This document shows positions 28,029-44,069 of a stretch of 64,000 nucleotides of DNA, piece by piece. This DNA comes from a virus (lineage: Duplodnaviria; Caudoviricetes): positions 1-64,000 of the IMG/VR virus record IMGVR_UViG_2868569063_000004; one strand, given 5' to 3'. Made by a program: the position numbers and the translations under genes. The notes under the pieces were generated by a model. It saw only the letters and a list, made by a program, of their open reading frames with translations. It did not search any database and was not told where the DNA came from. Within the stretch, counting starts at the first letter, position 1. The number at the start of each line of letters is the position of its first letter.

Positions 28029-31000
28029 TCATCTAAGCTTTCTCCAGTCTCTAGTCATATTTTTGTTAATAATTGTAGAAACTTTGTTTGCGACATCTTG
28101 GATGTCTAAATCATTACTCATATTTGCTACATTAATGTTCACTTCGTTGTTGATAGTATAATCATTATTTGTTGCAGTAGGAGTAACCGGGTTAAACATA
28201 TTGGTAAAGTTATTCATTGCAGCAATAGAAGGTTTGAGCAGACGAGTAAATTCTTCGGTCATTACTGATTCGCCAACTTTTGCACCAATGAATCCATGAT
28301 CTCCATTACTAATAATAGCCTTACCTAAAAGAGTGCTCATGTCAGCAGGTATTAGTTTATTTATTATTCCACCAGTAGCAAAACCATATGATTTATACTT
28401 TTGAAGTATCTGATTTTTTAAAGCAGAACCCCATGAATCATATTTTTTAACACCTGGAGTACTAATTCCAAGAATATCTGCAAGCTGTTGCATTTCTTTT
28501 GGTCCGACTTTTTTACCTTTGGAATTGAAGTAACCTACTAACTGACTAACACCAGATGGAATATCAGTTGCTCCATCTGGACGATTAGGTAGAGAGCTTG
28601 TCCAATCCTTCAGATATGCCTTTTTGAATCCTTCAACTGCGACATCAGACTGGTAGCTATGATTAGCCCCATTTTGATATGCATATTGCATGGCGGCTCT
28701 TAAGTTATCTCCAGAAGTAACATCAATCCCTGCATTAGCTGCATAGGATTTAATTGCTTCGTAATGAGCGTTTGGCATTACATGAACGGTACAAGTAGCT
28801 TTAGCAAGACCACCACCGCCAATAGCAGTAATGATACATTTTCTTGTTTTAGACTCATCACGCGCCATTAAACCGTTCTTATTAAGACCTGAAGACACAC
28901 CACGAACTGTACCATCAGAAGAAACTTTCGCAATAGATTCATCAGAACTTTTCCATTCAATATCAGAGTGCTCCGGTTTGCTTGGTGACCATGTTGCTTT
29001 AAGCTGCTGTTTAATATGGTCATAAGTTAAATAAATATCAGTAGCGTTTAGTTTTAAACTGTATTTCTTGTTATTAACTGTACCTGGAGTTTCATTTCCA
29101 GCACCAGTGGAGTCTTTATTGCTATTAAATGTATTGTGAATACCATTCTCAGCACCGGTATATGTATTATTACCAGTTGTAGAACCACCTTGCCCATTGC
29201 TTGTTCCATATGGAAGAGTAACTTTCATATTAGAAATGGTTTCTAATGCTTTTATCTGTTGAATCAAACTTGTATTGAAATCAGCAGACTTACCTATCAT
29301 AGTATCAAATGTGCTAGACACCTTAACACCATACTGATCCATCACAGTATGTAAATGTTTATATGTGTTATCATAATTAGTGGTTACATTGGTAAGCATT
29401 CCACTAATAATAGCTTCCTGAAACGAAGAATTTTTCTTTACTGCATCAAGTGTATTATCTAATGCCTTATTTGCCTCATCTGAAAAATTCTCATAGCCGG
29501 TATTTTTCATATCGACTTCATGCTGATGCATTGTATCGGCCATATCGTCTTCTGCATCTGCAAGTTCCGCACGTAATTTCTCAAGACGAGCTTTGGCGGC
29601 AGCATTACTGGTTCCTTCAAGGGCAGCTATCTGGGATTTAAGAGTATTAATATCTTTAGACTTCTTTTTTAAAGTTTTGTCATAATCGTAATATTTCTCT
29701 TTAGCAGAAAGAGCGTCTTTACGCTTATCAATATTTTCCTGAAGTAAATCATTCTCTTTCTTAATTTGAGTCTCATACATATCAAGCATATTCTGTTTCA
29801 GTTCAGAAAGAGCAGTAGATTCTTGTTGAATACCATCAAGAAGTTGTTTGCTTTTCTCATTGTATTCGTCTAAGCTGTAACAACCATTTTTATATTGTTC
29901 TTCAAGCTTATTAAGACCTTCCCTATAGTTAGCAATCTTTTGTTTTGTCGCATCTATAGATTCTTGAGTTAATAAAATGTTAGTTAATCCATTTGTAGTA
30001 AATGAACCATCATCATTGTAAAAACTTTCAGCGTCACCGAGAAGTTTTTGCATAGTCTGATATTCAGTGATAACATTTGATAGTTTATCTTGTGCATCAT
30101 CAAATGGTTTCCAGCGAAGTTCCATGATTTCATTTTTCAGATTTTCTATATCACTGCCGATTTTTAAAATTTGTTCGTCAATCTGTGCTATAGAATTAAG
30201 ATATTTCTGGGCTTCTTCATTATTCATAGAAGAAAAATGAGTATCATAGTATTCGGCTTTTTCTGCACGAAGTTTTTGAAGTGCATTGATCTGTCTCGCA
30301 TTAGATTTAATGCGCTCCTGATAAATCTTTTCGTTAATCTGATATTCAGGATTATCATTTGCTTTTGCGTAATCAATTACTGCATCCTGCTTGGAACCTG
30401 CACGATCCCAGCGGTCAACAGCCCATTGTTTTATCTGTTCACGATTATCTTGTAAAGCCTGAACTAATTCAGCAGCTTCATTTTCTAACTTAACAGCCTC
30501 TGTCTGGAGACTATAAAGCTGTTTCTTCATCTTTTGGTATTCTGGATCGACAGTTTTATGTCCATTTACCTTAAGATATTCTTTCATCCTACCTTTATAT
30601 TCTTTTATTTCTTTATCAGTAAGACGTTTCTGTTCATTGGTATAATAGAGTTCCTTTTTCATGTATTTTTCATATTTAGAACCAGGTTTCTGATTATACC
30701 CTTGTGAGACTCTCAATTCCTGTTTAGCGTTGTAATAGTCAGCTTTATTCTCACGTTTACCTATGACGGTGTCATAAGCTTCAATAACACGTTCGACCTT
30801 TGCTTTAGCTAAATCTTTCTGTGACTTAGTGAGTTCACGAATCGCTTTGTCACAATCCAAGATTTTTTCATACCATTCCTGATATGCGTCAACACGTTTC
30901 TTATCATCTTCGGATAAACTTTCAATATTGATTGTACCATTCTGGACTTTCTTTTTCAGTTCGTCAGATAAACCAACAGCAGAAGCAACTTCATTTGCTT

Positions 31001-34000
31001 TAGCTACGTATTTTGCTCTGGAATCTTTTTGTGTCTGTAATTGTTTATTTAGATTTTTAAGTGCTTTATCATAATTCTTCTCAGAAGACTTATAATTACT
31101 ATAATCGCTTTCAGCGATATCTTGATACTTTTCAACGATTCTCTCTAAACGATCAAGAGCAGTTTCTATCCAGTCTTTAGCTTGAGTACTTGCTTTTTTA
31201 ATTGTATCATCTAATTCTGATGTACCGTCTGCATAGGCAGGAGCAAGGGTTACACCAGAAGCAGTGCCTTGTGCATATGCTCTAGCATGACCATGTGTAG
31301 CACCATGTTTTAATAAATCCTCTGTTTGAGTAGCTGAAAAGATGATGTCACCTTTTTTCAAATTCTCAATATGAGCACCACCAGGAATAAGTGACCATAC
31401 ACCATCACGCACTATGGATTCAGAATGACCATTGATACCTACTTCGTTAACAATGGCCTGTTCATCATGTTTAAGTGCTACATCACCTTTTGCATGAGCA
31501 GAAGAGAGAGGCCTCATATTAAGAACGTTATAAGCTGTTCCAGAAGCGTGGGCAACTGAAGTCATTGTACCCGAAGCAGTTGCTATGGCACCACCAGATG
31601 GAGCACCTATAATATGAGCATAATAATTAACTGTGCCAGAAATAGTAGGAGCTGAGGTAGGAAAATCTCCTTCATAATGAGCAACTCCGTATGCATCATC
31701 AGCCACATGTGGGAAAATGCCTTCATAATTTGCTATTCCTTCAGCATCTGGGACAGTAGGCGCTTCATCTACATGAGCTGTAGCTTTAACGGTTGTATCT
31801 GGTACAGTGGGAGCTTCTGTTACATTAGCTTTTGCATTTAAACTTACTTGTACTCCTTCTCCACCAGTAACACCAGTGATATTGGCCTTAGCGTTGACTT
31901 CAACAGCATCTCCAGAATAAGGCTCGATTTCAAGTTTACCTTTGACAGGAACTTCAGTATCAGCAGTAGCGGCAGAATCAACATCTACCCCTTTAATAGA
32001 AGCGTGTACTTCTACATTTGCTCCTTTAGAATTTGCTGTACTTTGAGCTTGCATAAGCTCATCAAATTCTTCTTTATTGTTTACTTCGCAATCAACAACT
32101 AATTTAGCTCCATTGGTAGGGGCAGATTCAATTAATTCGGTGGCCTTCTCAACATCCTCTTCACCATTAACTTCCATATCAATAGTAGCTGTAGTATCAG
32201 ATGGCATAGATTCAATTGTAGATTTTGCTTGTTCAAAACTACCTTCATTAGAAACATCACAGTTTAAAGTTACAGTGGATCCAGAAACGTTTTGTAAGTT
32301 TTCAATATCTGATTCTGCTTCACTGGTATCTGCTTCAACATCAACTTTTGCCGTTATGTCGTCATTTGACATTTTAAGCAATTGGTCTTCTGCAGTTTGT
32401 ATATTATCAGTATCTACTAATTTAACTTTAGAATCAGTCTGAGCTTGCTGTAAAGTTTCAAAAGCTGCATTAGCATCTTGAGTAGCTTGATCCAGAGTGT
32501 TATCCATGCCTTTTTGGTATAATTGGGTCTGGACATCCATTTCATTCTTAGCTTGCATAAAGTCTTGAGCAGCTTTTACAATACTAGAACTAGAATCGGC
32601 TTGAGATATATCAGAGGAGTTATATTCTACGTCTTGCTCATGCGAAATAGCTCCTGTATACACAGTCTGGAGTTCTTCGCCACCAGTAATCTCTGGATGG
32701 TATTTACCATCCCGATCTCTATACTTATCTACTTCTGTTCCTAAATCAGTTACTTGCTGATGAATAGAATCTAAATCAGTTGAATCAAAATCAAATTTAT
32801 AAGTTTTTCCTGTGAGATCAGTTAATTCATTTTGAGCTTCTTTCGCTTCGGTAACTACAGAATCCAGATTTTTTGTTGCATCAGTAGTATCCGTATTAAC
32901 CTTTAAAATACCTAAACCTTCAAGAGCAGTAAGAATCTGGTCTTTAGACAACTGAGTCTTATCTGCTAACTGTTGTATGGCATCTTCAGCCTGTTCCATA
33001 CCCTCAACATTATAAGCACCATCATTTAATTTGATGCCATCTAATTGTGTACGGTTATATTTAGAAAGGGTTTCAAATGACTTTTCAGTAGCGGCATCAT
33101 TTTCCTTATGTGCAGCAGTAAGAGCTTCTAATGAGTGTGTGTATTCAGCAACTCTGTCAGGATCATCACCTAATCCCATCTGTTCAGCAGTCTGTGGTTT
33201 CTCCCAAGACCCCTTAGTAGTTTCTTTAGAGGAATTACTACTTTTCTCAGAATCTTTTAATTTACCAGCTTCTTTTAAAGCCTCAATAACAGAACGAGCT
33301 TGGTCTTTAGTTAAACCGAGTTTTTCACATAAAGATTCAACAGCTTTTTCTGCATCACCTAATTCAGTGTCCCATTTACCATCATTGAAATCTATACCTT
33401 CTAACTGTTCAGAAGTATATTTTCCAAGAGTGTCTACTAAAGAAGTAACATCTGTGTTCTGTTCTTCATATGCTTTATTGATACCATCAAGAGCTGTAGT
33501 AACAGAAGCAGAATCTGTTATGATGCCATCCATTAATGAAGATACATCTGTTCCTAAAAGAGCTTCAACAGTTGTACCGGCAGAAGCAGCTAGCTCTTCT
33601 TGTTTAGCTTTTAATTGATTAATAGCTGCATTTCGCTGATCATTTGTCAATTGATCATTTTTTTGAACTCTTTTTATCTCTTCTTCGTAGGCTTGCGCTC
33701 CCATGGCAGATGAATTGAAATTATCAATAGCATTTTGAGCAGCATCTTCTGAATAAGACTCCATGTTATCATAGGTTTCTTTTAAATCCTGTTTATATTT
33801 ATTAACTTTATCCTCAGAAGCAGAAATAGCAGTAGTGTTAGTACTATCTGTATTTTTCAGTTCTTCGAGTCGTTTCTGTTCATCTGAAAGGGCAGAAGTA
33901 AGTTCTTGAGTTCTGTCTATACCTTCCTCTATAGATGATATAAAGTTATTATCAATACCATAATCACGAAGACGACCGAAGTTAGCACTCATGAATTCTT

Positions 34001-36740
34001 TGCTGATTCCCATTGATCGAGCGGCTTTACTCATATCATCTATGTCAAATGACCATCTTTTACTTGCATCATCATAAGATGCCATACCCTTAGATTTAAG
34101 ATCAGCTAAGAAATTATTAACACCTGTCTTATCTTCTGTGAGATATCTTACAGCTTTACCATAGTTCTCTGCAAAGTTTGCTCTATCATCTGAACCTGTA
34201 GGAGAAATAAGAGCGGCAAATGATTTAAAATCATCTGTACCTACAAGACCTTTATCATATGCATCTTTAGCATTCTTTAGTCCGGCGACAATGTTATTAT
34301 ATTTATCTCCGGCATTCTCCGTACTCTGGGCACGTTGCCACTGAGAATAATAGGAAAGAAGTTCCTGTTGCTGTTTCTTAGTTGCTTGCCATTCAGACTG
34401 AGATTGCATATAAGATAAATATTCGTTTCTAGCATCTTTTAATTTATCTTTTTCAGAATCATAGGCAGCTTTTTTATCATCTTCGTCTTCAGTTCCTTTA
34501 GCTTCTTTCCATGCTTTTTTTGCTTTATTTGTTACATCTGTTTGATCCTTAATAGCTTTGGTCTGTAACTTAATACCCTTTTCGAAATCTCCATCAGTGG
34601 CTTCAGCCTGATATTCCGTAAAGGTTTTCAAAGCATCTATGTTTAGTTTGATACCATCAGAAGTAGTGGTGAATAAATCATTAACATTTTGCTCAATGCC
34701 ACGAGGATCTTTCACATCTTTGAAAGCAGTAGAAAGGATCTTAACATTGTCTTTAGAAATTCCACCTGCAGAAGTAGTCTCTGTAAGAATAGTTCCCATA
34801 GAAGAAAGAGTAGACTTAGCAGTTGATACTTTCGTTTCCATTGAATCTAAAGAAACGGCTGCTTGATCACTCATATTTTTAGCTGCTTGTTTAGCCTTTT
34901 CGAATGCCGTATAAAATTCATCAATTGAACTTAAATCTTTATTATCAGTGATAACCTGTACAGCTATTTCAAGTTCATCTTGTGTAGCATTTTTTAGATC
35001 TTCTCTTACTTTTTCGGCATCGCCTTTAGTTTTGCTAGCCTTTGCTCCTTTCAGAGCATCTCTAACCCTATTAAGACTATCTTGATTCTCCCAAACAGTA
35101 TAAGCCTTATCATTGTCATCGTATTCAGTATGAGCAAAACCAAAAGCTTCGGCTAAAGTACCTTTAGTCCAGAAGTCGCTTTGAGAAATATCTGCTATAG
35201 ACTCAAGGACATCATCTCTTCTTGCAGCAAATTCTCTTACAGTTTCCTGGTCTTTAGGTTCCATTTCAAACAGTTGAGACCAAAGCTTTTGTTGATCTGG
35301 AGTAGCAGTAGCCATAGGGTTGACTACATTGTTACGGAGCCATGTGTCCATGTCTTTGCCGGATTCTTTAAAATTATTAAGCAATCTGGCATTGTCCGTA
35401 GAATTAAGCATATTATTCAACTGTGATTGAAATTCTGATGCTTTATCTTGATCGTCCCAGCTATCAAAAGAATCAATAGTACTTGCCATTGATTTGATAG
35501 AAGAAACCATTTCTCTTTTAGAGGCATCTATAGATTCTTGAGTATTAACTAAATTAGTATGAGCTTCTTGAAGTTCGCTATTATCTGAGTTTAAAACACT
35601 GGCAGCTTCACTATTAAGAAAATCTAACTGTTTACCATCAAATTCAAGAGTTATCTTTTGACCATCCGCAGATTGCTTATAACCTTTTATTGCTTTTCCA
35701 AATGTATTACCAAGTGCATCATATGCAGTTTGATCCAGTGTATAGGTGATGGTATCTTCTCCTTTTGTATGCTTTTTAAGCATGTCGGAAAATTTTTGTA
35801 CAGAATCAACTTTATATTTAGCTGCATCATATGCATTTTTGTATTCGTCTTGTTTGCCCTTATTCTCTCCTAAAGCAGTCTCATACCCTTTATACTGATC
35901 GCTAATATTTTTCTTTGTATCATAATAAGTAAGATTCCTCTGTAGCTTTAGATAATCATTGACCTGAGTGTTTAAATCCTCAGCATTAGTTCCTGCATTA
36001 AGAATAGCATTACCCTGAGAATCCCATGAACGTGTGAGACTAGGAGCAGCGGCAGCAATCTGATTACTCGTATCTAAGAAATCCTTATATTCATCATCTG
36101 TAAGACTAATATTTTTAATAGAATTACCGGATATTTTTACACCTTTGGACAATTCTGTGTATTTGGAAGTAAGTTCTCCAAGAGAAGCTTTCTGATCCTC
36201 ATAGGCTTTAGTTTGGGATTGAATGGATTCTTTTGCTTCTTGGCCTTTAGCAATTAAGTTCTCATTTTTATGAACGAAAGCGTCAATGCCTTTACCAAGC
36301 AATGAGAAAGCTCCTTGTACAAGCATTCCAACACCAGCAGAAATAAAAGCATTGCCAATCATTGAGAGACCAGCAGATGCCATACTTTTTAGACCATCGG
36401 ACCATTTGCCTTGTTTCTGTTGATCAGGTTTCTCCACCTCATTCTCTCTTTTAAAATCAGTGAGAGTCTTAGCATTAGTAGCTATTTGCTTGCCATAATC
36501 TTTGGCTCTTTGACTAGCATTCTTCGTTACTTCATTCGCTTTAGCCATACGTTGCTCGTTGTCTGTAATGGCCTGACCATTGTTATCAAGTTGCTTGTTA
36601 AGGTCTTTAAGAACTTCTAAATCATCTGAATATGCTTGATAATTTTTATTGGCTTCTGCATAGCCTTTTGCTATAGCAGCATTACGTTGAACTCTTCGTG
36701 ATTGTGGTAAAATTCCTCCATCTTCATTCTTGGCGAAAAC
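28029..36740 (-). CDS. Tape measure protein, exon 2 (2,903 aa, starts VFAKNEDGG)
   Basis: Very long helical ORF between tail genes and Dit with no credible start of its own; joins exon 1 in frame after intron removal. Confidence 0.88.
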   Translation of the reverse strand, partial: VFAKNEDGGILPQSRRVQRNAAIAKGYAEANKNYQAYSDDLEVLKDLNKQLDNNGQAITDNEQRMAKANEVTKNASQRAKDYGKQIATNAKTLTDFKRENEVEKPDQQKQGKWSDGLKSMASAGLSMIGNAFISAGVGMLVQGAFSLLGKGIDAFVHKNENLIAKGQEAKESIQSQTKAYEDQKASLGELTSKYTELSKGVKISGNSIKNISLTDDEYKDFLDTSNQIAAAAPSLTRSWDSQGNAILNAGTNAEDLNTQVNDYLKLQRNLTYYDTKKNISDQYKGYETALGENKGKQDEYKNAYDAAKYKVDSVQKFSDMLKKHTKGEDTITYTLDQTAYDALGNTFGKAIKGYKQSADGQKITLEFDGKQLDFLNSEAASVLNSDNSELQEAHTNLVNTQESIDASKREMVSSIKSMASTIDSFDSWDDQDKASEFQSQLNNMLNSTDNARLLNNFKESGKDMDTWLRNNVVNPMATATPDQQKLWSQLFEMEPKDQETVREFAARRDDVLESIADISQSDFWTKGTLAEAFGFAHTEYDDNDKAYTVWENQDSLNRVRDALKGAKASKTKGDAEKVREDLKNATQDELEIAVQVITDNKDLSSIDEFYTAFEKAKQAAKNMSDQAAVSLDSMETKVSTAKSTLSSMGTILTETTSAGGISKDNVKILSTAFKDVKDPRGIEQNVNDLFTTTSDGIKLNIDALKTFTEYQAEATDGDFEKGIKLQTKAIKDQTDVTNKAKKAWKEAKGTEDEDDKKAAYDSEKDKLKDARNEYLSYMQSQSEWQATKKQQQELLSYYSQWQRAQSTENAGDKYNNIVAGLKNAKDAYDKGLVGTDDFKSFAALISPTGSDDRANFAENYGKAVRYLTEDKTGVNNFLADLKSKGMASYDDASKRWSFDIDDMSKAARSMGISKEFMSANFGRLRDYGIDNNFISSIEEGIDRTQELTSALSDEQKRLEELKNTDSTNTTAISASEDKVNKYKQDLKETYDNMESYSEDAAQNAIDNFNSSAMGAQAYEEEIKRVQKNDQLTNDQRNAAINQLKAKQEELAASAGTTVEALLGTDVSSLMDGIITDSASVTTALDGINKAYEEQNTDVTSLVDTLGKYTSEQLEGIDFNDGKWDTELGDAEKAVESLCEKLGLTKDQARSVIEALKEAGKLKDSEKSSNSSKETTKGSWEKPQTAEQMGLGDDPDRVAEYTHSLEALTAAHKENDAATEKSFETLSKYNRTQLDGIKLNDGAYNVEGMEQAEDAIQQLADKTQLSKDQILTALEGLGILKVNTDTTDATKNLDSVVTEAKEAQNELTDLTGKTYKFDFDSTDLDSIHQQVTDLGTEVDKYRDRDGKYHPEITGGEELQTVYTGAISHEQDVEYNSSDISQADSSSSIVKAAQDFMQAKNEMDVQTQLYQKGMDNTLDQATQDANAAFETLQQAQTDSKVKLVDTDNIQTAEDQLLKMSNDDITAKVDVEADTSEAESDIENLQNVSGSTVTLNCDVSNEGSFEQAKSTIESMPSDTTATIDMEVNGEEDVEKATELIESAPTNGAKLVVDCEVNNKEEFDELMQAQSTANSKGANVEVHASIKGVDVDSAATADTEVPVKGKLEIEPYSGDAVEVNAKANITGVTGGEGVQVSLNAKANVTEAPTVPDTTVKATAHVDEAPTVPDAEGIANYEGIFPHVADDAYGVAHYEGDFPTSAPTISGTVNYYAHIIGAPSGGAIATASGTMTSVAHASGTAYNVLNMRPLSSAHAKGDVALKHDEQAIVNEVGINGHSESIVRDGVWSLIPGGAHIENLKKGDIIFSATQTEDLLKHGATHGHARAYAQGTASGVTLAPAYADGTSELDDTIKKASTQAKDWIETALDRLERIVEKYQDIAESDYSNYKSSEKNYDKALKNLNKQLQTQKDSRAKYVAKANEVASAVGLSDELKKKVQNGTINIESLSEDDKKRVDAYQEWYEKILDCDKAIRELTKSQKDLAKAKVERVIEAYDTVIGKRENKADYYNAKQELRVSQGYNQKPGSKYEKYMKKELYYTNEQKRLTDKEIKEYKGRMKEYLKVNGHKTVDPEYQKMKKQLYSLQTEAVKLENEAAELVQALQDNREQIKQWAVDRWDRAGSKQDAVIDYAKANDNPEYQINEKIYQERIKSNARQINALQKLRAEKAEYYDTHFSSMNNEEAQKYLNSIAQIDEQILKIGSDIENLKNEIMELRWKPFDDAQDKLSNVITEYQTMQKLLGDAESFYNDDGSFTTNGLTNILLTQESIDATKQKIANYREGLNKLEEQYKNGCYSLDEYNEKSKQLLDGIQQESTALSELKQNMLDMYETQIKKENDLLQENIDKRKDALSAKEKYYDYDKTLKKKSKDINTLKSQIAALEGTSNAAAKARLEKLRAELADAEDDMADTMHQHEVDMKNTGYENFSDEANKALDNTLDAVKKNSSFQEAIISGMLTNVTTNYDNTYKHLHTVMDQYGVKVSSTFDTMIGKSADFNTSLIQQIKALETISNMKVTLPYGTSNGQGGSTTGNNTYTGAENGIHNTFNSNKDSTGAGNETPGTVNNKKYSLKLNATDIYLTYDHIKQQLKATWSPSKPEHSDIEWKSSDESIAKVSSDGTVRGVSSGLNKNGLMARDESKTRKCIITAIGGGGLAKATCTVHVMPNAHYEAIKSYAANAGIDVTSGDNLRAAMQYAYQNGANHSYQSDVAVEGFKKAYLKDWTSSLPNRPDGATDIPSGVSQLVGYFNSKGKKVGPKEMQQLADILGISTPGVKKYDSWGSALKNQILQKYKSYGFATGGIINKLIPADMSTLLGKAIISNGDHGFIGAKVGESVMTEEFTRLLKPSIAAMNNFTNMFNPVTPTATNNDYTINNEVNINVANMSNDLDIQDVANKVSTIINKNMTRDWRKLR

Positions 36741-36802
36741 CAAACTGTGTGATATAATATAGCAAATCTTAATTACTATATATAATAAAAAGAAGGAACA
36801 AT

Positions 36803-37309
36803 ATGGAAGAATTATTATTTTGCAATAAATGTGGAAAGACCAGTACATCTTCTTCTTATAAAATAGGGGATAGATGTTATACCTGTGAAATTGGAACCTA
36901 TATAGGCACTGGTATTGATTGGTCTACAGCATATATGGAGTTATCAAAAGAATATGAGAAAACTCATGACGGTCATTGTCCCAGTCATTTGGAATCATCT
37001 GAGATATTTAGGCAAAAATATTTTTATGGAAAGTTAGACAATGAAGTAGATTACTCTGCCGTTAAAAAAAGAAAATATAGTGAATCTCCTGAAGGAATAG
37101 AAGAGCAAAACAGGATAACAGATAGATGGTATGCCAAACAGAATGCTCAGAAATTCTCTACTGGGCCTAAGTGTCCAATCTGCGGCAGTACAAACCTTAA
37201 GAAAATCACTGGAACAAGAAAAGCAATGAAGATAGGTCTGTTTGGTCTTTTTGGAGCTGGTGACCTTGGTAAGACTTATCAGTGCTGTAAGTGTGGAGCT
37301 AGATTTTAA
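36803..37309 (+). CDS. Intron cargo: zinc-ribbon protein with C-terminal CPxCGSTN...GLFG...CxxCG domain
   Basis: Four CxxC pairs; AGAAGGA RBS; TATAAT boxes at 36755 and 36781. Confidence 0.8.
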   Translation: MEELLFCNKCGKTSTSSSYKIGDRCYTCEIGTYIGTGIDWSTAYMELSKEYEKTHDGHCPSHLESSEIFRQKYFYGKLDNEVDYSAVKKRKYSESPEGIEEQNRITDRWYAKQNAQKFSTGPKCPICGSTNLKKITGTRKAMKIGLFGLFGAGDLGKTYQCCKCGARF

Positions 37310-38226
37310 TGAACATACCTGTAAATGCTAAAAGACAATTAGATAAAAGAGATATATATTGTATCTACCGGAGACCCAAAAAAGATAAAGATATATGCAC
37401 TTTACCTGATAGGCATTATTGTCAAATGTGTACGGCTAGACCACAGACAACATGTCGCTTAAAGGTTTCTCAGTATCGAAATGAACTAAATGCTCGCAAT
37501 AACAAAAAAGAATATCTTTTTGGTGTAGAAGTAGAACATGTTAGTAAAATTGATAAGAAGCTGAAACCAGCACAACATTCATTAAGCTCATTTACGGAAA
37601 GTTCTTCAAAAAATGCCAGTACAAGAACGTACAACTTGAATCATAATACTGTAGGCTCATATATTGATTATGGACCCAAATGGGATATTAAAAATTGGGC
37701 TGATTTTAAATATAAAGAAACCGTATATGTATTTAAGGGATTTTTGTATTGTGCAAAACATCATTCTGATTCATTGAGTCATGGACAAGTTATTATAAGA
37801 AATTTAAAAGGTACTAAAGAAAAGCATAGAGTAAATTTAATTTATTGTGCTAAGTGTAAAAAGTATTATATTGATGAAAGCCATTATAAAGATTTTATAA
37901 GACAGAAAGTATTGCTTGATTTTAGGATTAGGGCAAGCCATTCTCGTGGATATGGCTTTGGCGGATTCAAATCTGAATCTGAGTTACATCTTTATGGATA
38001 TAATGCACAAAGCTCTACACCTAAGTCGGTACGACAACAAGTTTTGTATGATGTTGTTTCCAATAGGTTAATGCGTGTAGAGGTTGTTATTTCACACTTA
38101 CAAGGACTCATTTCAATAAATGAATCAAGAAATGATAGAGCTACTGTTATCAAGCGCTACCGAGAAGATATGGATTTTTTATATGAGAAATTTCCAGGAG
38201 TAAGTATGGAATATAGAACCTTATAA
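37309..38226 (+). CDS. Intron cargo: hypothetical Cys-rich protein (305 aa)
   Basis: Translationally coupled (TAATG); CxxC motifs; C-terminal SELHLYGYN...RQQVL...VISHL helical region. Confidence 0.75.
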   Translation: MNIPVNAKRQLDKRDIYCIYRRPKKDKDICTLPDRHYCQMCTARPQTTCRLKVSQYRNELNARNNKKEYLFGVEVEHVSKIDKKLKPAQHSLSSFTESSSKNASTRTYNLNHNTVGSYIDYGPKWDIKNWADFKYKETVYVFKGFLYCAKHHSDSLSHGQVIIRNLKGTKEKHRVNLIYCAKCKKYYIDESHYKDFIRQKVLLDFRIRASHSRGYGFGGFKSESELHLYGYNAQSSTPKSVRQQVLYDVVSNRLMRVEVVISHLQGLISINESRNDRATVIKRYREDMDFLYEKFPGVSMEYRTL

Positions 38227-38863
38227 CAAGAGCTTTAAATGTAATACGTGCGGATATACATAATGATAGTTTATGAGCAATTTAATCATAATCTGCCGGA
38301 AGTGCGGTTACACATGGTGGCTAAGAAGATAATTATGACAAATAAAATACTCTATCATCAATAATATCACATAATTTTTGTGTTTCAATTTCATTTTTTA
38401 ATAGGAAACATTTTCTTTTATCAAATATAAAGTAAAAGATTGTTTTAACATACAAGACAAAATATTTAAATTTTCTTGTAATAAATCTTTTATTCATATA
38501 AAGAGATGTTTTTATGAAACGAATTTTGCATTTGGAGGAAATATTTTTCATGGATGAATTCTTTCGTAAAATATTAAATGATTTTGTAGATGAGTATAAT
38601 CAACAGAATATATAAAATTTAATGAACTCACGTTCTGGATATACAAAGTTGTCGAATATTGTTATTATACTACTAGGTATATTATGGTTATAGGTGCTGC
38701 ATTATAACTCGCTGCACGATAATATACTTGATCATTTCTTTTGATCATGCAGAAGTGTTGGCATACATTCTGTATTGTTGATGCGGACGAAGAATCTGCC
38801 CGTTCTGGGCAATACACTTCCCCAATAAAGAAATTTATAAGGGAAGGGGGTGAAAAGAAGAAT

Positions 38864-39049
38864 ATGAATACTGGAATAATAATATCTCTTGGTAGTCTTT
38901 TACTTGTTGTAATATTAGCTGGTCTATATTATAACTCGAAAAATCATACCGTTGATCAAATTTGCAACCATCCAGAATTATCTGATGAGAAAGTCAAATT
39001 TATCACCGGAATGATGAAAAGACAATACAAGAATAAAAAAGTTGACTAA
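38864..39049 (+). CDS. Intron cargo: small single-TM membrane protein (61 aa)
   Basis: MNTGIIISLGSLLLVVILAGLYY; GAAGGGGGTG RBS; terminator downstream. Start moved from the track's 38741. Confidence 0.7.
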   Translation: MNTGIIISLGSLLLVVILAGLYYNSKNHTVDQICNHPELSDEKVKFITGMMKRQYKNKKVD

Positions 39050-39119
39050 TCGCTAATAATGTTCTACTTTATCATTTAATTACTTCGTCATATGTATTTC
39101 TCTTTTTAAAATTTTTAAT

Positions 39120-39152
39120 AGAAGGAGAACTGTCACAGCAGTTCTCCTTTCT
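39120..39152. terminator. Strong hairpin between convergent cargo genes
   Basis: AAGGAGAACTG-tcacag-CAGTTCTCCTT, 11-bp perfect stem. Confidence 0.75.
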
Positions 39153-39224
39153 GTGCACCAACACTTTGCATAATACTATAGGAAAGTTAACAATCTCGAC
39201 TGCATTGAATACAACCGAAAAAGA

Positions 39225-39395
39225 TTATTCGTATAAGTCATATCCTGGGAGTTGATTAGCAATTTCTTTTGGGTAATTACTGATAAATTTTGTTCTGCCA
39301 ATATCACTGATTTCTATAAGTAAATCTGTAATTTCGTTTGAGCTTAGATTTTGAATATATTCAGGAACTAATCTATCAAAAATGTTTTTATCCAT
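39225..39395 (-). CDS. Intron cargo: 56-aa hypothetical protein (MDKNIFDRLVPEYIQ...GYDLYE)
   Basis: Translated by hand (below the ORF-track cutoff); AAAGTAGGTG RBS. Confidence 0.55.
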   Translation of the reverse strand: MDKNIFDRLVPEYIQNLSSNEITDLLIEISDIGRTKFISNYPKEIANQLPGYDLYE

Positions 39396-39440
39396 TAAAT
39401 ACACCTACTTTCAAAACTATATTATGGAGGTTTAAAGATT

Positions 39441-39551
39441 ATGGAAATATTAGAATGTCCTCTTTACAAAGAGTGTAAAGAAGAGGAATGTCCGTACTTT
39501 GAAAATGAAGATTGTACGTATTATACTAAGAAAGAGCAGGAGACTGAATAG
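39441..39551 (+). CDS. Intron cargo: 36-aa acidic four-Cys miniprotein (MEILECPLYKECKEEECPYFENEDCTYYTKKEQETE)
   Basis: GGAGG RBS at 39426-39430; terminator overlaps the stop codon. Confidence 0.6.
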   Translation: MEILECPLYKECKEEECPYFENEDCTYYTKKEQETE

Positions 39552-39566
39552 TCTTTTGCTCTTTTG
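39531..39566 (+). terminator. Intrinsic terminator
   Basis: AAGAGCAGGAGACT-gaat-AGTCTTTTGCTCTT followed by TTT. Confidence 0.65.
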
Positions 39567-39659
39567 ATGAATTTTGTAAGTATGTTTTATAAGTATCACA
39601 AGTAATACCTCTTATAACAGGAGAATCAATTATCTGACTTTTCTCTTTGCTAATAAACA

Positions 39660-40124
39660 TTAGCTCCAATTTACTCCCCATGATGTTACCTCCTCGAAAG
39701 TTATTTCTGGGAATATTTTCTGAACAACAGAAAAAGTAGTTAGTTTGACTTTTGTTTCATTTGTTTCTTGAAAATAGTAATGCACTAATTCTTCAATAAA
39801 TGCGAATAGTTGCATGTGTTGATTGTTAGATGTAATTATCCGTTCCATGGAGTATACTAAAAAAGACATACATCTTCCATAAGTGGTTGCTTCATTTTCG
39901 GTGACAGAAAAACTGCCATCTTTTGTAAATATTAGACTTACAGGAAATAATTTAGTAGGATCAATATTTTTTTCATATAAATGTTTGCTTAAGGATTCTA
40001 ATCCTTTAGTAAACAAATTGGCCAGTTCCTTTGACATTTCATAAGTTGCATTCATAAATAAGCATCCGTCAAAATATGGCGGAGCAATTGGTGCATAAGT
40101 TCTGATAGAATTATTTATTATCAT
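39660..40124 (-). CDS. Intron cargo: possible ImmA/IrrE-like zincin metallopeptidase-fold protein
   Basis: AGGAGG RBS; QLFAFIEELVHYYF resembles the (H/E)ExxH motif. Confidence 0.5.
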   Translation of the reverse strand: MIINNSIRTYAPIAPPYFDGCLFMNATYEMSKELANLFTKGLESLSKHLYEKNIDPTKLFPVSLIFTKDGSFSVTENEATTYGRCMSFLVYSMERIITSNNQHMQLFAFIEELVHYYFQETNETKVKLTTFSVVQKIFPEITFEEVTSWGVNWS

Positions 40125-40586
40125 AGTTTTACCCTCCTATGTGAAATATAGCATAGAAGAATAATAAAGTAAAGATTTGTGCTTACATCACCTTTGCACA
40201 TAAGGTAAGATTGCTCACAAGAATAAGATGTATTTACCCTTTAATTTATTCGGCGTAAGCTGCCTAACAGTCCTGACTATTCCTTCTTGATCCGGAGACC
40301 AAGTTCCCATTATAGTCGATGAACGTTCTTCTCTATAAAATAAAGAAGCTTCGCTGCAGACCACCCATATATATACATTGTTACTATATCTATTACATTA
40401 CTGTAGTAGGGGAGTAGTATATACTTCGGTTCACCCTGAATGCCAAATTAAAAGCATTTCTCTATTCCTTCGAATAAAGACAGTTTCGGTTGTTTGCTTA
40501 GTAACCCCTTTCTCATATGAGATCGTTCCGTGTCACCACCAGGTTACATGGGGCGTTTTCTAAAGGACCAACTGATAATTTGTCCC

Positions 40587-43118
40587 ACCCCAGTTCATAG
40601 CATGGCTAACAAGCATACCGCCGACTCCGGCTAAGGATTTATTAAGTCCCAAACCATTTAAGAGCCCTACAGCGCCGTTGCCAACATCAAGCAATCCTTT
40701 AAAAGTATTAGTACTACCTTCTGATTGCCATAACTGTGACCAAGATTCTTTAATTTTAGTTGTTTTTGCTTCGATAGAATCAAGGTATGTATTAAGCTCG
40801 TTCTGAGCTGAATTTTGATAATTATTTGCGGAATCATTATAAACATCTGTAAGCAATTCAGGATGCTGCAATATGGATGCAAGAATATTACTTCTATTTT
40901 TTCCTGCCATCATTTCAAGCAGAGCAGCCTGTCTATTCTGACCATCTGCCAAATCTTGCTTACCAATATCATCCCAAACCTGAGAGATATCTTTTAAAAT
41001 ATCATAAGTATCTCTATAGTTTCCATTCATATCAAGAATAGAAACTCCAGCCTTACCGTTAACGGCAGTAAGAGATTTAATATTTGAATTAAGTTTAGAA
41101 GTGGTCTCTACAAGACCTTCTGTATCTTCACCCATAGAAGATAATTCTTCAGCAGAAGTGCCTCTAAGTCGTAATGCAATTGTTCTAAGACCAGCACCTA
41201 CCTTCGATGGATCCTGCACTACACTATTTGCTGCCGTAACAAGAGCAACTGACTTGTCAAAGTCGTTCCCCGCTGCTACCAATGCTGAACCTGAATCCTG
41301 TAAAGCAGTGGCAATTCCGTCTGTAGAAATTGCATAGTTGTTACCAACAAGATTCATTTTATCAACGAGATCCATAGAATCATCAACTTTTACGTCGTAT
41401 GCTTTCATCATGGAAATCATAGCGGTTGTTGCATCATCTATAGATCCGAATTCTGATACATTTTTTAAAATACCTGTATTTTTAGCTAAAGTCTGAGATT
41501 CATTTAAGCTATATCCAAGACGAGAAAAATCAGCAGCACTACTAGTAATCTGAGTGGTTGTACTACCAATGTCTTTGGCATCAGTTCTAGCCTGAGTAGT
41601 AAAGTCTCTATATTCTTGTTTTGTACCATCTGATGTTTTCTTAAGTTCAGTCATCGCTGAATCTAATTCTTTTATTGATTCGACACCGGATCTGACACCT
41701 GTTGTTAATGCTTGGAATCCAAAATTACTTACAAGATACTGGCTAAGACTACGGAACTTTTGTCCCATTTCAGAAATATAACTAGATAAAGGTTTTACAC
41801 TTTGAGTAACTTTAGTAAGAGATTGGTCAATATTACCTGGACCATTTTTATATGCTAATTGATATTTTTCAAATACACCAGACCCTCTATCAATAGTAGC
41901 ATACATTTTACCTTGTGCTGCATTAAACTCTGTTGTGTATTTGCTTCCTTTTGCCAGATCTGCTGACATTTGTTCCATCTTAAGACGGACCTTATCAGAT
42001 GCTGGATCTAAATCTGTACCAATATATTCTGAACGGCTATATTTATTTGGAATACGTGAGAAAAACTGATTAGTATTACCGAGATACCTAGCTTGACGAT
42101 TGGCTTCAGAGCGAAGAGCAGCAAAACGTACTTGCTCAGTGTCTCTTTCGTCTCCAGTAAGAGTCGCAAGACTATCACGAGATTTTTTTAATTGCTCATA
42201 TGTATCATTGAAAGATTTTAATCTTTCATCATAACCTTGTCCTAGAGTTTTATCTAATGGTTTACCATTGTTAGGATTATATACTTGAGCCATTTTATTG
42301 AATGTCTTCTGTTTCTCACCCAAATTAGTGATAACTTTGTCGTATTCTGAAGCACTCTGAGTCATTGCTTTGTATGCTTCTTGATTCTTAGCCTGTGCTC
42401 CTCGAATGTCAGATGCAGAAGTAACCCAATCAGAAGCAGTACCTTGATTTTGTATCTGTCTAGCCAGCTGAGAATTTCTATGTCCTATAGTTCTCTTTGA
42501 CTGTTTATAAGTACTTTCATCAATAATCCCACTTACATACTGTTCCTGTAGGGTTCCTATTGTCTTCATATTTCTCTTAATTTCAGCTTGAGCTTGTCTA
42601 AGAGTAATGCCTGTAGATCTTGCAGTATTAGAAGAACTAGTGGTTTCTCCAACAACTATTTTACCGTCTTTAGTTTTTATATTGTCTCCAACAGTAAGCT
42701 TAATAGAGCCCATGTTTTTAGCTGTAGATTTTATTTCATTAAGTTTGGCTAAAAGTCCATCAAGCTCCCCCATAATACCTTGATTTACGGAAAGTTTTAC
42801 TTCTCCTAGATCAAGCTTGTCCTGGTACCTTGACAGCTTACTGACTGTATTAGCCATAGATTTTAAAGCTTCTTCAGGATTTACCATCTGTTCTACAAGA
42901 TTAGATCCTTTAATAACAGGAGTATTTTTAGCGGCTTTGGCAGTTGCTTTACTTATTGTTTTTACCGCTGTCTGTGCATTTTTAGTTAACTGTTTAGTAT
43001 TACCTAATTCCACACCTAGTTTAATGTGCTTCTCTTTTAAAGAATTAATTCGTGTTTCTAATGCATTTAGCGCACTGTCTTCAACTTCTACACCAACGTT
43101 TATTATATAATCAGCCAT
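40587..43118 (-). CDS. Tape measure protein, exon 1 (844 codons, ends ...HAMNWG)
   Basis: TP901-type TMP core (ELDSAMTELKKT...ADFSRLGYS...DKMNLVGNNYAIS...GAGLRTIALRLRG). Confidence 0.9.
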
Positions 43119-43132
43119 TTTCTCACCTCACT

Positions 43133-43588
43133 TTATAAACCAACAGAATGTAATCCGCTGATAACAAATTTTGTTGCTTGCCCTTTGGCATGCATTTTTC
43201 TAGCACGAAAATATTGTTCCCAATAATTTCTGATAGGAGTTATTTTTTTACGAAATCCATGATTACCTGTTTCAAATCCCCAAGAAAAAACTATTTCTGG
43301 ATCACCTTCCAATGGTTCCCATATGCCATGTCCTCCAGACATATGGCTTGAATCAAATCGTGCTCTAAGCTCTGCACTTCGACTATAAGCAAAGCCTGTA
43401 ATTGTATGAATATTTTTTAAATCATAAAGTCTATAACCATCCGCCCAAGAGGAATAGTCATTATAATATTTTTCTTCTGACTGTTGTGCATCTTTTTCCA
43501 TCTTAGGCTTGTAGTCATTAACAAACTGCTGTAAACCAATAGTTATTCCCTGGTCAATCAGCTTTCTTAACTGTGGAATTGTCCCCAT
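43133..43588 (-). CDS. Tail-region protein (possibly tail completion, HK97 gp10-like)
   Basis: Position before the TMP; YYNDYSS...YRLYDL motif. Confidence 0.5.
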   Translation of the reverse strand: MGTIPQLRKLIDQGITIGLQQFVNDYKPKMEKDAQQSEEKYYNDYSSWADGYRLYDLKNIHTITGFAYSRSAELRARFDSSHMSGGHGIWEPLEGDPEIVFSWGFETGNHGFRKKITPIRNYWEQYFRARKMHAKGQATKFVISGLHSVGL

Positions 43589-44069
43589 CTTTTACATCAG
43601 CCAACTTTCGTAAATAATCTAACTGTTCCGGAGTAGCTTCTTTAAAAACATTTTCTAATATTCCAAATAATGCACTTAATCTATTAGACATAGAGTTAGT
43701 AAATGAAATACGAGCGGAAAGTGTTTCTTCAAACATAGCAACCATATCTCCATAATCAACACCAATCATTTCAATAATTTTATCTAAAAGACCAGAAGAT
43801 ACTAAGGCATCATAAGCATCAAGACCTTCTTCGTCTTCGTAGGTGAGATTAGTATAGATAACCACACATGTCAGAGAAAAGTTTAAATGCTTATTCATTG
43901 GCTCATATGTAAGAAGAGAAGTATCATATTCAATAATACTTTCAATAACTGTATCTATAAGTGCTCGTTTAGTAGCAAACGGCACATAATTTTCAACTTC
44001 AAGTTTTTCTAAAGCCCCTACTGGGTTCTCTTTATATTCTTTTACAAATTCTAAAATATTAATTTCCAT
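43554..44069 (-). CDS. Putative tail assembly chaperone
   Basis: Acidic; YVPFATK and YDALVSSGLLDKII; lies between major tail and TMP genes. Confidence 0.55.
   Translation of the reverse strand: MEINILEFVKEYKENPVGALEKLEVENYVPFATKRALIDTVIESIIEYDTSLLTYEPMNKHLNFSLTCVVIYTNLTYEDEEGLDAYDALVSSGLLDKIIEMIGVDYGDMVAMFEETLSARISFTNSMSNRLSALFGILENVFKEATPEQLDYLRKLADVKDGDNSTVKKAD

Follow-up and report, generated by a model that had tools for sequence, protein, structure and literature searches.

Group I introns are usually described as being either empty or as carrying a homing endonuclease gene. In the nrdD (sunY) intron of phage T4 a single sense-strand endonuclease gene (I-TevII) follows the catalytic core; classical morons lie between genes. 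Several protein genes in one group I intron are known from the IStrons, in which the intron is fused to IS200/IS605 or IS607 genes (PMC4227781; bioRxiv 10.1101/2023.11.20.567912), and introns in the tape-measure gene are known from prophages of the Bacillus cereus group, where TMP-IVS1, 2, 3a and 3b are either devoid of an open reading frame (ORF) or encode a GIY-YIG or HNH protein (PMC2504315). Here we analyze the split tape-measure gene of a temperate, SPbeta-like phage from a bacterium of the rodent gut, contained in the IMG/VR provirus record IMGVR_UViG_2868569063_000004 (122,874 bp), of which the first 64 kb were investigated (“the window”). We propose that the gene is probably interrupted by one group I intron with the ribozyme at its 5' end and an exchangeable island of accessory genes in its 3' part, which includes an antisense unit and lacks a recognisable homing endonuclease.

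The virion operon is located on the minus strand at 19-53 kb of the window, and the tape-measure gene appears there in two pieces (Table 1). The reading frame of exon 1 belongs to an 852-codon ORF (40560-43118) which runs 24 nt into the intron, and the ORF containing exon 2 (2,939 codons, 28029-36848) follows 3.7 kb downstream. In the gap between both ORFs the GC content drops to 24-33% and the GC skew flips its sign. In large siphophages related to this one the gene is undivided: the tape-measure genes of Brevibacillus phage Sundance (2,528 aa) and Enterocloster phage CB473P3 (1,510 aa) are continuous, and both possess more than 1,000 additional residues after the domain that matches exon 1. 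Exon 2 by itself provides no means for the initiation of translation (Table 1) and therefore needs splicing. In relatives its ORF stays open for approximately 2,900 codons even where the first 300 residues are only 52% identical. In the diverged relatives L017 and L019 third-position changes occur from the very first codon of exon 2, and the sequence differs upstream of G-GTTTT (the hyphen marks the junction). Tail-assembly chaperones with a programmed frameshift are usually found just upstream of the tape-measure gene; by analogy, two overlapping ORFs of 171 aa and 151 aa directly upstream of this one (43133-44069, minus strand) occupy the chaperone position.

Both splice sites were assigned with the help of a putative internal guide close to the 5' end of the intron. 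Its GCCCCA half pairs with UGGGGU at the end of exon 1 and places a U.G pair on the splice site (P1); its GAAAAC half is complementary to GUUUUC, the six bases with which exon 2 begins (P10). A P10 guide placed directly 5' of the P1 guide corresponds to the canonical layout, and the 3' splice site is preceded by a terminal G (G36741). Considering 60 in-frame junction pairs and Watson-Crick pairs only, apart from the U.G, the observed guide score of 12/12 was reached by 2 out of 2000 shuffles. Taken alone, the guide pairing is no more than suggestive of an intron. The G-GTTTT 3' junction is retained in the diverged L017 and L019, and in contig L102 exon 1 has diverged right up to CTGGGGT, with everything 3' of this motif being conserved. 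Two alternative junctions were discarded. A 5' splice site beside the stop codon (CUU-UAG or CUUU-AG, guide GAGAAAGGGG) was dropped because the junction 40587/40586 gives contiguous Watson-Crick P1 and P10 pairings, and it is also contradicted by the exon divergence of L102 reaching CTGGGGT; a 3' junction after ACACAG would create a stop codon in L017. The 5' exon end TGGGGT is similar to TGGG, the motif beside which IS607-type IStrons are reported to insert (bioRxiv 10.1101/2023.11.20.567912), possibly by coincidence.

The non-coding part which follows the 5' splice site is far better conserved in L102 than the adjacent exon: its divergence amounts to 0.044 per site, compared to a synonymous divergence of exon 1 of 0.86 over the whole exon and 0.77 over the last 100 codons. 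These 410 nt appear to be either constrained or recently transferred. Within them, the Rfam model RF00028 recovers P6, P7, P8 and P9 but not P1-P5. The match was obtained with the short stretch alone, and an Rfam scan at its own cut-off found nothing. The Q element UCUGCAGCGAA is identical to that of the viral introns L085, L091 and L081, which score 66-82 bits, and the R (GUUCAUCGACUAUAA) and S (GGAAUAGUC) elements are nearly identical to theirs. The P6 and P8 helices have different sequences in each of these introns, with the pairing kept. A change of C157/G202 (numbering from 40562) to U/A in relatives could not be fitted into a single consistent P4-P5 model, and MAFFT did not align the four cores in structural register. 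The Q element could also form 11 bp with 36920-36930 within the Zn-ribbon gene (-21 kcal/mol), but L017 and L019 lack this pairing, which was taken as chance. Judged from the guide, the core elements and their conservation, 36741-40586 is very likely a functional group I intron.

Table 1. Location of the tape-measure exons, the predicted intron and its elements, the cargo genes and the putative expression signals in the window.
Feature	Coordinates	Strand	Remarks
Tape-measure exon 1	40587..43118	-	844 codons, ends ...AMNWG; PF10145 PhageMin_Tail, E 1.4e-18
Tape-measure exon 2	28029..36740	-	starts GTTTTC = VFAKNEDGG; Big_2 domain; without start codon or ribosome site
Predicted group I intron holding the cargo	36741..40586	-	3846 nt
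Conserved ribozyme part (P1 to P9 and extensions)	40176..40586	-	non-coding; 96-99% identical in all relatives
Internal guide GAAAAC-GCCCCA	40549..40560	-	P1 and P10 pairing with both exon ends
Catalytic core, Rfam RF00028	40253..40432	-	17.1 bits; E 0.06 (521 nt), 0.003 (genome)
Core element Q	40350-40362	-	
Core element R	40310-40324	-	
Core element P8	40286-40303	-	
Core element P7'	40275-40280	-	
Zn-ribbon gene	36803..37309	+	168 aa, two zinc ribbons; first antisense gene beside 3' splice site
Block absent from 19/19 relatives	37311..38619	+	1,309 bp; 305-aa gene and decayed relics 38227-38619
305-aa gene	37309..38226	+	ORF
61-aa membrane-protein gene	38864..39049	+	ORF; single-pass, N-terminal membrane helix judged from sequence
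56-aa gene	39225..39395	-	sense-strand ORF; 59 aa from upstream GTG
36-aa gene	39441..39551	+	ORF; four Cys
154-aa gene	39660..40124	-	sense ORF with EELVH; GGAGGG ribosome site
Present/absent module of the 154-aa gene	~39544-40175		
Promoter-like site TTGGCG-17-TGaTATAAT	36730..36758	+	straddles 3' splice site; consensus match only
Terminator-like hairpin after 36-aa gene	39530..39565	+	16-pair stem, then T run

To describe the variation of the cargo we compared 19 IMG/VR relatives, further contigs (including L102, L104 and L111-113), and four runs (X1, X18, X19, X20; all contigs). In 16 out of the 19 relatives exon 1 is 97-100% identical over a C-terminal query of 346 aa, and in the other three it is 56% identical over a shorter part. 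The intron is found at the same site in all 19 relatives, in the further contigs and in the four runs. Its length differs considerably: from the end of the exon 1 frame to exon 2 we counted 1,687-2,516 nt in the 19 relatives compared to 3,822 nt here, and introns of approximately 1.7-3.8 kb overall. According to the original prediction the core, the guide and the 3' end should be kept while the cargo varies, and this is what the comparison gives: ribozyme, guide and 3' tail are conserved, and the cargo changes module by module in the relatives, the further contigs and the runs. The Zn-ribbon gene and the 36-aa Cys gene occur in all 19 relatives (the latter also in L102 and L111-113), the 56-aa gene in 14, the membrane-protein gene in 12, the 154-aa gene in 10, and the 305-aa gene in none. 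Two other genes occupy the same slot in relatives, namely a 183-aa HEPN gene of the pEK499_p136 type (PF18736, E 2.6e-16), which the window lacks, in six of them, and a 225-aa gene with the HExxH-type motif HEITH in two. The HEPN protein at L003:10230-10781 scores 60.2 bits at a cut-off of 26.6 and contains the Rx4H motif RNAVCH; it is also annotated in L111-113.

The 305-aa gene is part of a block which is missing in all 19 relatives, where 38620 is joined to 37310. The same joint is found in run X18, which is without the block. The gene is present in the same intron of L102, L104, X1, X19 and X20. In L102 its homologue is the first antisense gene, and the Zn-ribbon gene was not called. Run X1, an isolate, contains the whole stretch; runs X19 and X20 possess the 305-aa gene and lack the 154-aa module. 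The commonest arrangement elsewhere consists of the Zn-ribbon, HEPN and 36-aa genes. For one arrangement the collection lists 87 blocks, and the Zn-ribbon family comprises 117 clusters. No match was obtained by blastn of the region to phage records or of the core to plasmids, nor by a search of genome contigs with exon 1. Immediately behind the 305-aa gene lies a stretch (38224-38285) that matches the end of the L003 Zn-ribbon gene, a relic of an earlier cassette.

A further hint towards the exchange of cassettes arises from the neighborhoods at L103:1059-3122 and L114:4128-6397. There, relatives of the 305-aa and Zn-ribbon proteins adjoin a 189-aa serine resolvase of the same type (PF00239 and HTH_49) in small integrative elements, which suggests a shared cassette pool and fits the notion of exchangeable accessory genes. 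A related layout is found in the distant lineage L105-107 (L105:3855-6843), in which exon 1 is followed by a gap of approximately 450 nt, a 153-aa sense gene that is 61% identical to the 154-aa protein, antisense genes for a 425-aa protein, an SprT-like 224-aa protein and a Zn-ribbon protein, and then exon 2. An Rfam search of the L105 gap of approximately 450 nt gave no match; this lineage may contain a different or unrecognised ribozyme.

All six ORFs which the original prediction had placed in the P9 region lie 3' of the catalytic core, in which 40275 is the last position of P7', and their distribution over the two strands is as claimed. The stop codon of the Zn-ribbon gene overlaps the start of the 305-aa gene (TAATG). 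Nucleotide changes between relatives argue for most of the cargo genes coding for protein. For the 36-aa gene the nonsynonymous divergence (dN) is 0.054 and the synonymous divergence (dS) 0.75, i.e. a dN/dS of 0.07, and 16 out of 24 variable sites fall on the third codon position; this small gene is under strong purifying selection. The Zn-ribbon gene has a ratio of 0.2-0.4, and in diverged pairs the 305-aa gene has one of 0.1-0.2; the ratio is 0.22 in the 154-aa gene and approximately 0.28 in the 56-aa gene. The Zn-ribbon, 305-aa, 154-aa and 36-aa genes thus evolve as protein-coding genes. The membrane-protein gene is invariant where it is present, and its dN/dS gives no judgement.

From these observations the following sequence of events can be proposed. 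The first approximately 410 nt of the intron would act as the ribozyme, and the 3.4 kb up to the 3' tail of approximately 60 nt would represent the accessory-gene island. Late transcription would cross the entire intron, the guide would align the exon ends, and splicing would join ...AMNWG to VFAKNEDGG, so that the spliced tape-measure gene would encode approximately 3,750 aa. As splicing removes the intron, insertions 3' of P9 would cost the tail gene nothing. The Zn-ribbon, 305-aa, membrane-protein and 36-aa Cys genes probably form a transcription unit of their own, which would reach from a sigma-70-type promoter over the 3' splice site to the hairpin after the 36-aa gene and may be expressed in the lysogen in a moron-like manner. 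The promoter-like site is one out of four 10/12 sites in the region, and the sole one on the plus strand with a TG before the second hexamer. It overlaps the splice site and the first codons of exon 2. On the minus strand the hairpin at 39530-39565 is not followed by a U run and should therefore not halt the late transcript; a second hairpin (approximately 39121-39152) lies between convergent gene ends. The 154-aa and 56-aa genes would be translated from unspliced or excised intron RNA. Cassettes could be gained, lost and replaced via recombination among related phages. The HEPN, HExxH-motif and membrane proteins of the relatives would fit moron-type or defence-type accessory genes.

The original prediction regarded the intron as a protected landing pad for moron-type genes. 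Part of this idea now has direct counterparts in the comparison, as the core is kept, the cargo is swapped and no recognisable endonuclease is present. Splicing itself, the separate expression of the cargo, and a cargo role of the defence, exclusion or toxin-antitoxin type are what we infer from the sequences. A bolder version of the idea, which we consider doubtful, is that the intron represents a dedicated vehicle with which defence or counter-defence cassettes travel from one tape-measure allele to another through homing-like co-conversion. At the 3' end the same approximately 45 bp would then serve as splice signal, tape-measure codons and host-type promoter, and the expression of the cargo in the lysogen and of the tail gene in the lytic cycle would be coupled and mutually exclusive. 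In relative L015 the last 100 codons of exon 1 show a dS of 0.08 compared to 0.64 overall, and this exon end looks co-converted.

A number of points weigh against the proposed accessory-gene intron. The Rfam score of the core (Table 1) is far under the gathering cut-off of 50 bits, probably because P3 and P4 are weak in our hand model: the P4 candidate (UUCAGG/UCUGCA) has one mismatch, and the P3 candidate (GCUUUU/GGGAAC) has three G.U pairs and one mismatch. If G.U pairs are allowed, 12% of the shuffles reach a guide score of 12/12. A “clamp” across the cargo (CAAAUCUU/AAGAUUUG) is not compensated in L102 and is kept as a possibility only. Hairpins are present, as the original prediction stated, yet promoter-like and terminator-like signals across the region are no more numerous than in shuffles, so that only the single best promoter carries weight. 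In addition, the hairpin at approximately 39121-39152 has a partly U-rich tail on the minus strand, so that late transcription could in part terminate there. None of the cargo genes is matched by a PADLOC model, and the AlphaFold model of the 305-aa protein is unusable, with a predicted local distance difference test score (pLDDT) of 40. An intron-less allele was seen neither among the relatives nor in the four runs (where its lack carries no weight), and the intron is at most putatively mobile.

Among the other explanations, the one that survives best is an unrecognised homing endonuclease or mobility factor within the cargo (the 305-aa, Zn-ribbon or 154-aa protein), with the remaining insert being secondary. 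We regard it as unlikely. The much higher conservation of the intron part compared to the flanking exon and the co-converted appearance of the exon end in L015 resemble homing, and the 154-aa ORF sits in the classical endonuclease position and is present or absent in the manner of intron endonuclease genes. Against this, none of the nuclease models in Pfam, NCBIfam, PHROG and PADLOC matches any of the six cargo ORFs of the window, which agrees with the earlier claim that no GIY-YIG, HNH or LAGLIDADG motif is recognisable, and neither a transposase nor TnpB was matched by intron ORFs of the window and the relatives tested. L102 lacks the Zn-ribbon gene, whose family is found outside introns, too; the 305-aa gene is missing in all 19 relatives with the intron retained.

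Of the two candidates that were modelled, the 154-aa protein has a fold which points away from a nuclease, and the fold of the 305-aa protein could not be assigned. The 154-aa protein (phrog_33355) was modelled with a pLDDT of 96. Its fold is zincin-like (Z 8.1-5), with the best scores (Z 8.1-7.4) for M1 aminopeptidase domains and YbeY at a root-mean-square deviation of 3.1-4.0 over 108-130 residues, a range which can arise from a common arrangement. The HExxH metal-binding motif was not found in this protein, which has EELVH (family consensus EELxHH). A relative with 32% identity is encoded by an ordinary gene that directly follows a tape-measure gene and precedes the next tail gene. The 305-aa protein has relatives in three clusters only, and a tblastn search with it against phages gave no match. 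Sequence searches of the solved structures with the 305-aa and 154-aa families found no match, and the ESM Atlas returned no named family. The 305-aa protein could thus still be a hidden nuclease, as far as can be judged from modelling. The zincin-like domain of the 154-aa protein also occurs in 13-14 tandem copies in two giant proteins (P0006, 2126 aa; P0009, 2502 aa) and in four copies in a third one (P0047, 1929 aa).

Endonuclease-type interruptions do occur elsewhere in these tape-measure genes. Exon 1 is interrupted by 1.3-1.9 kb in L019 (L019:8750-10476, after approximately residue 750), L023 (L023:6664-8001, residue 643) and L024 (L024:8435-10381, residues 653-658), and the interruptions of L019 and L023 contain sense ORFs with matches to PHROGs that bear the annotation HNH endonuclease. 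We regard the tape-measure gene as a multi-intron target. The same phage contains a second intron candidate (RF00028, 41.8 bits; 64877-65036, minus strand; L001:1501-1660) approximately 900 nt past the end of the window. Beside it lies an ORF of 241 aa which contains an HNH_3 domain (E 7e-8), i.e. an ordinary intron-plus-endonuclease layout.

Still less probable, in our view, is that the sense-strand cargo genes or antisense transcription serve the tail gene, with the 154-aa protein being an assembly or processing factor and the antisense promoter silencing the tape-measure gene in the lysogen, so that part of the cargo would be no free passenger. The occurrence of 154-aa relatives in tail modules, immediately behind the tape-measure gene, the 61% identical relative at the same position in the distant lineage, and the overlap of the promoter-like site with the splice site and the first codons of exon 2 can all be read this way. 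The 154-aa module is missing, however, in 9 out of the 19 close relatives as well as in X19 and X20, and is therefore dispensable.

It is very improbable that the tape-measure protein is made by trans-splicing, with the late transcript ending at the hairpins between the convergent cargo genes and exon 2 plus the intron tail forming a second RNA which base-pairs with the ribozyme: a putative pairing of 8 bp (CAAAUCUU/AAGAUUUG) would bring the 3' tail to the end of the conserved 5' portion, but it is lost in L102, the hairpin after the 36-aa gene (39530-39565) lacks a minus-strand U run, and no convincing minus-strand promoter was found before exon 2 (best 9/12). Equally slim is the chance that there is no intron at all and the tape measure consists of two proteins separated by an intergenic accessory island with a decayed ribozyme relic, as the sub-threshold Rfam match and the poorly defined P3-P5 region might suggest; an exon 2 that has no start codon or ribosome site and yet stays open in relatives down to 52% identity, the pairing of the guide with both exon ends, and 410 non-coding nt that are strongly conserved speak against it.

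A group I intron with an exchangeable accessory-gene island, as we favor it, combines features of several described systems. With morons the cargo shares small genes with a putative promoter and terminator of their own that are directed against the late operon, are variable, and encode defence-type domains (HEPN, in relatives); in contrast to morons, the hotspot lies inside an essential coding sequence and depends on RNA splicing. The T4 nrdD intron also has a long insertion 3' of P9, which requires the 3' splice site to be located via P10 and P9.0 pairings far away from the core, whereas here six or more genes are inserted, mostly antisense and not recognised as nucleases. The tape-measure introns of the Bacillus cereus group agree in the class of the host gene, the prophage setting, the several sites per gene, and the mostly missing intact endonuclease gene, but a multi-gene accessory cargo was not reported for them (PMC2504315).

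By analogy of layout, IStrons are the closest published analogue: they, too, possess a 5' ribozyme and several protein genes between the core and a short 3' tail, their insertion is hidden by splicing, and their hosts are Firmicutes. Unlike IStrons, the intron analyzed here contains neither tnpA, tnpB nor a guide RNA. It carries changing accessory cargo, mostly on the opposite strand and probably with its own promoter, and it occupies a fixed site in one phage gene instead of being spread by transposition. The original prediction knew of no described system of this kind, and our full-text literature search found no report of a phage intron with a variable multi-gene accessory island. IStrons have shown that group I introns can shelter transposase genes; in the present case the load would be changing ordinary accessory genes in an essential virion gene, in a layout that is found again in many gut phages. 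Three small uncharacterised proteins (Zn-ribbon, 36-aa Cys and 305-aa) would be candidates for defence or exclusion functions. If splicing and separate expression of the cargo hold true, the locus would represent a new kind of accessory-gene hotspot for phage genomics, and could account for the “split” tape-measure genes annotated in metagenomes. Moreover, it would provide a natural ribozyme that tolerates antisense-transcribed inserts of multiple kilobases, which might be useful for intron engineering.

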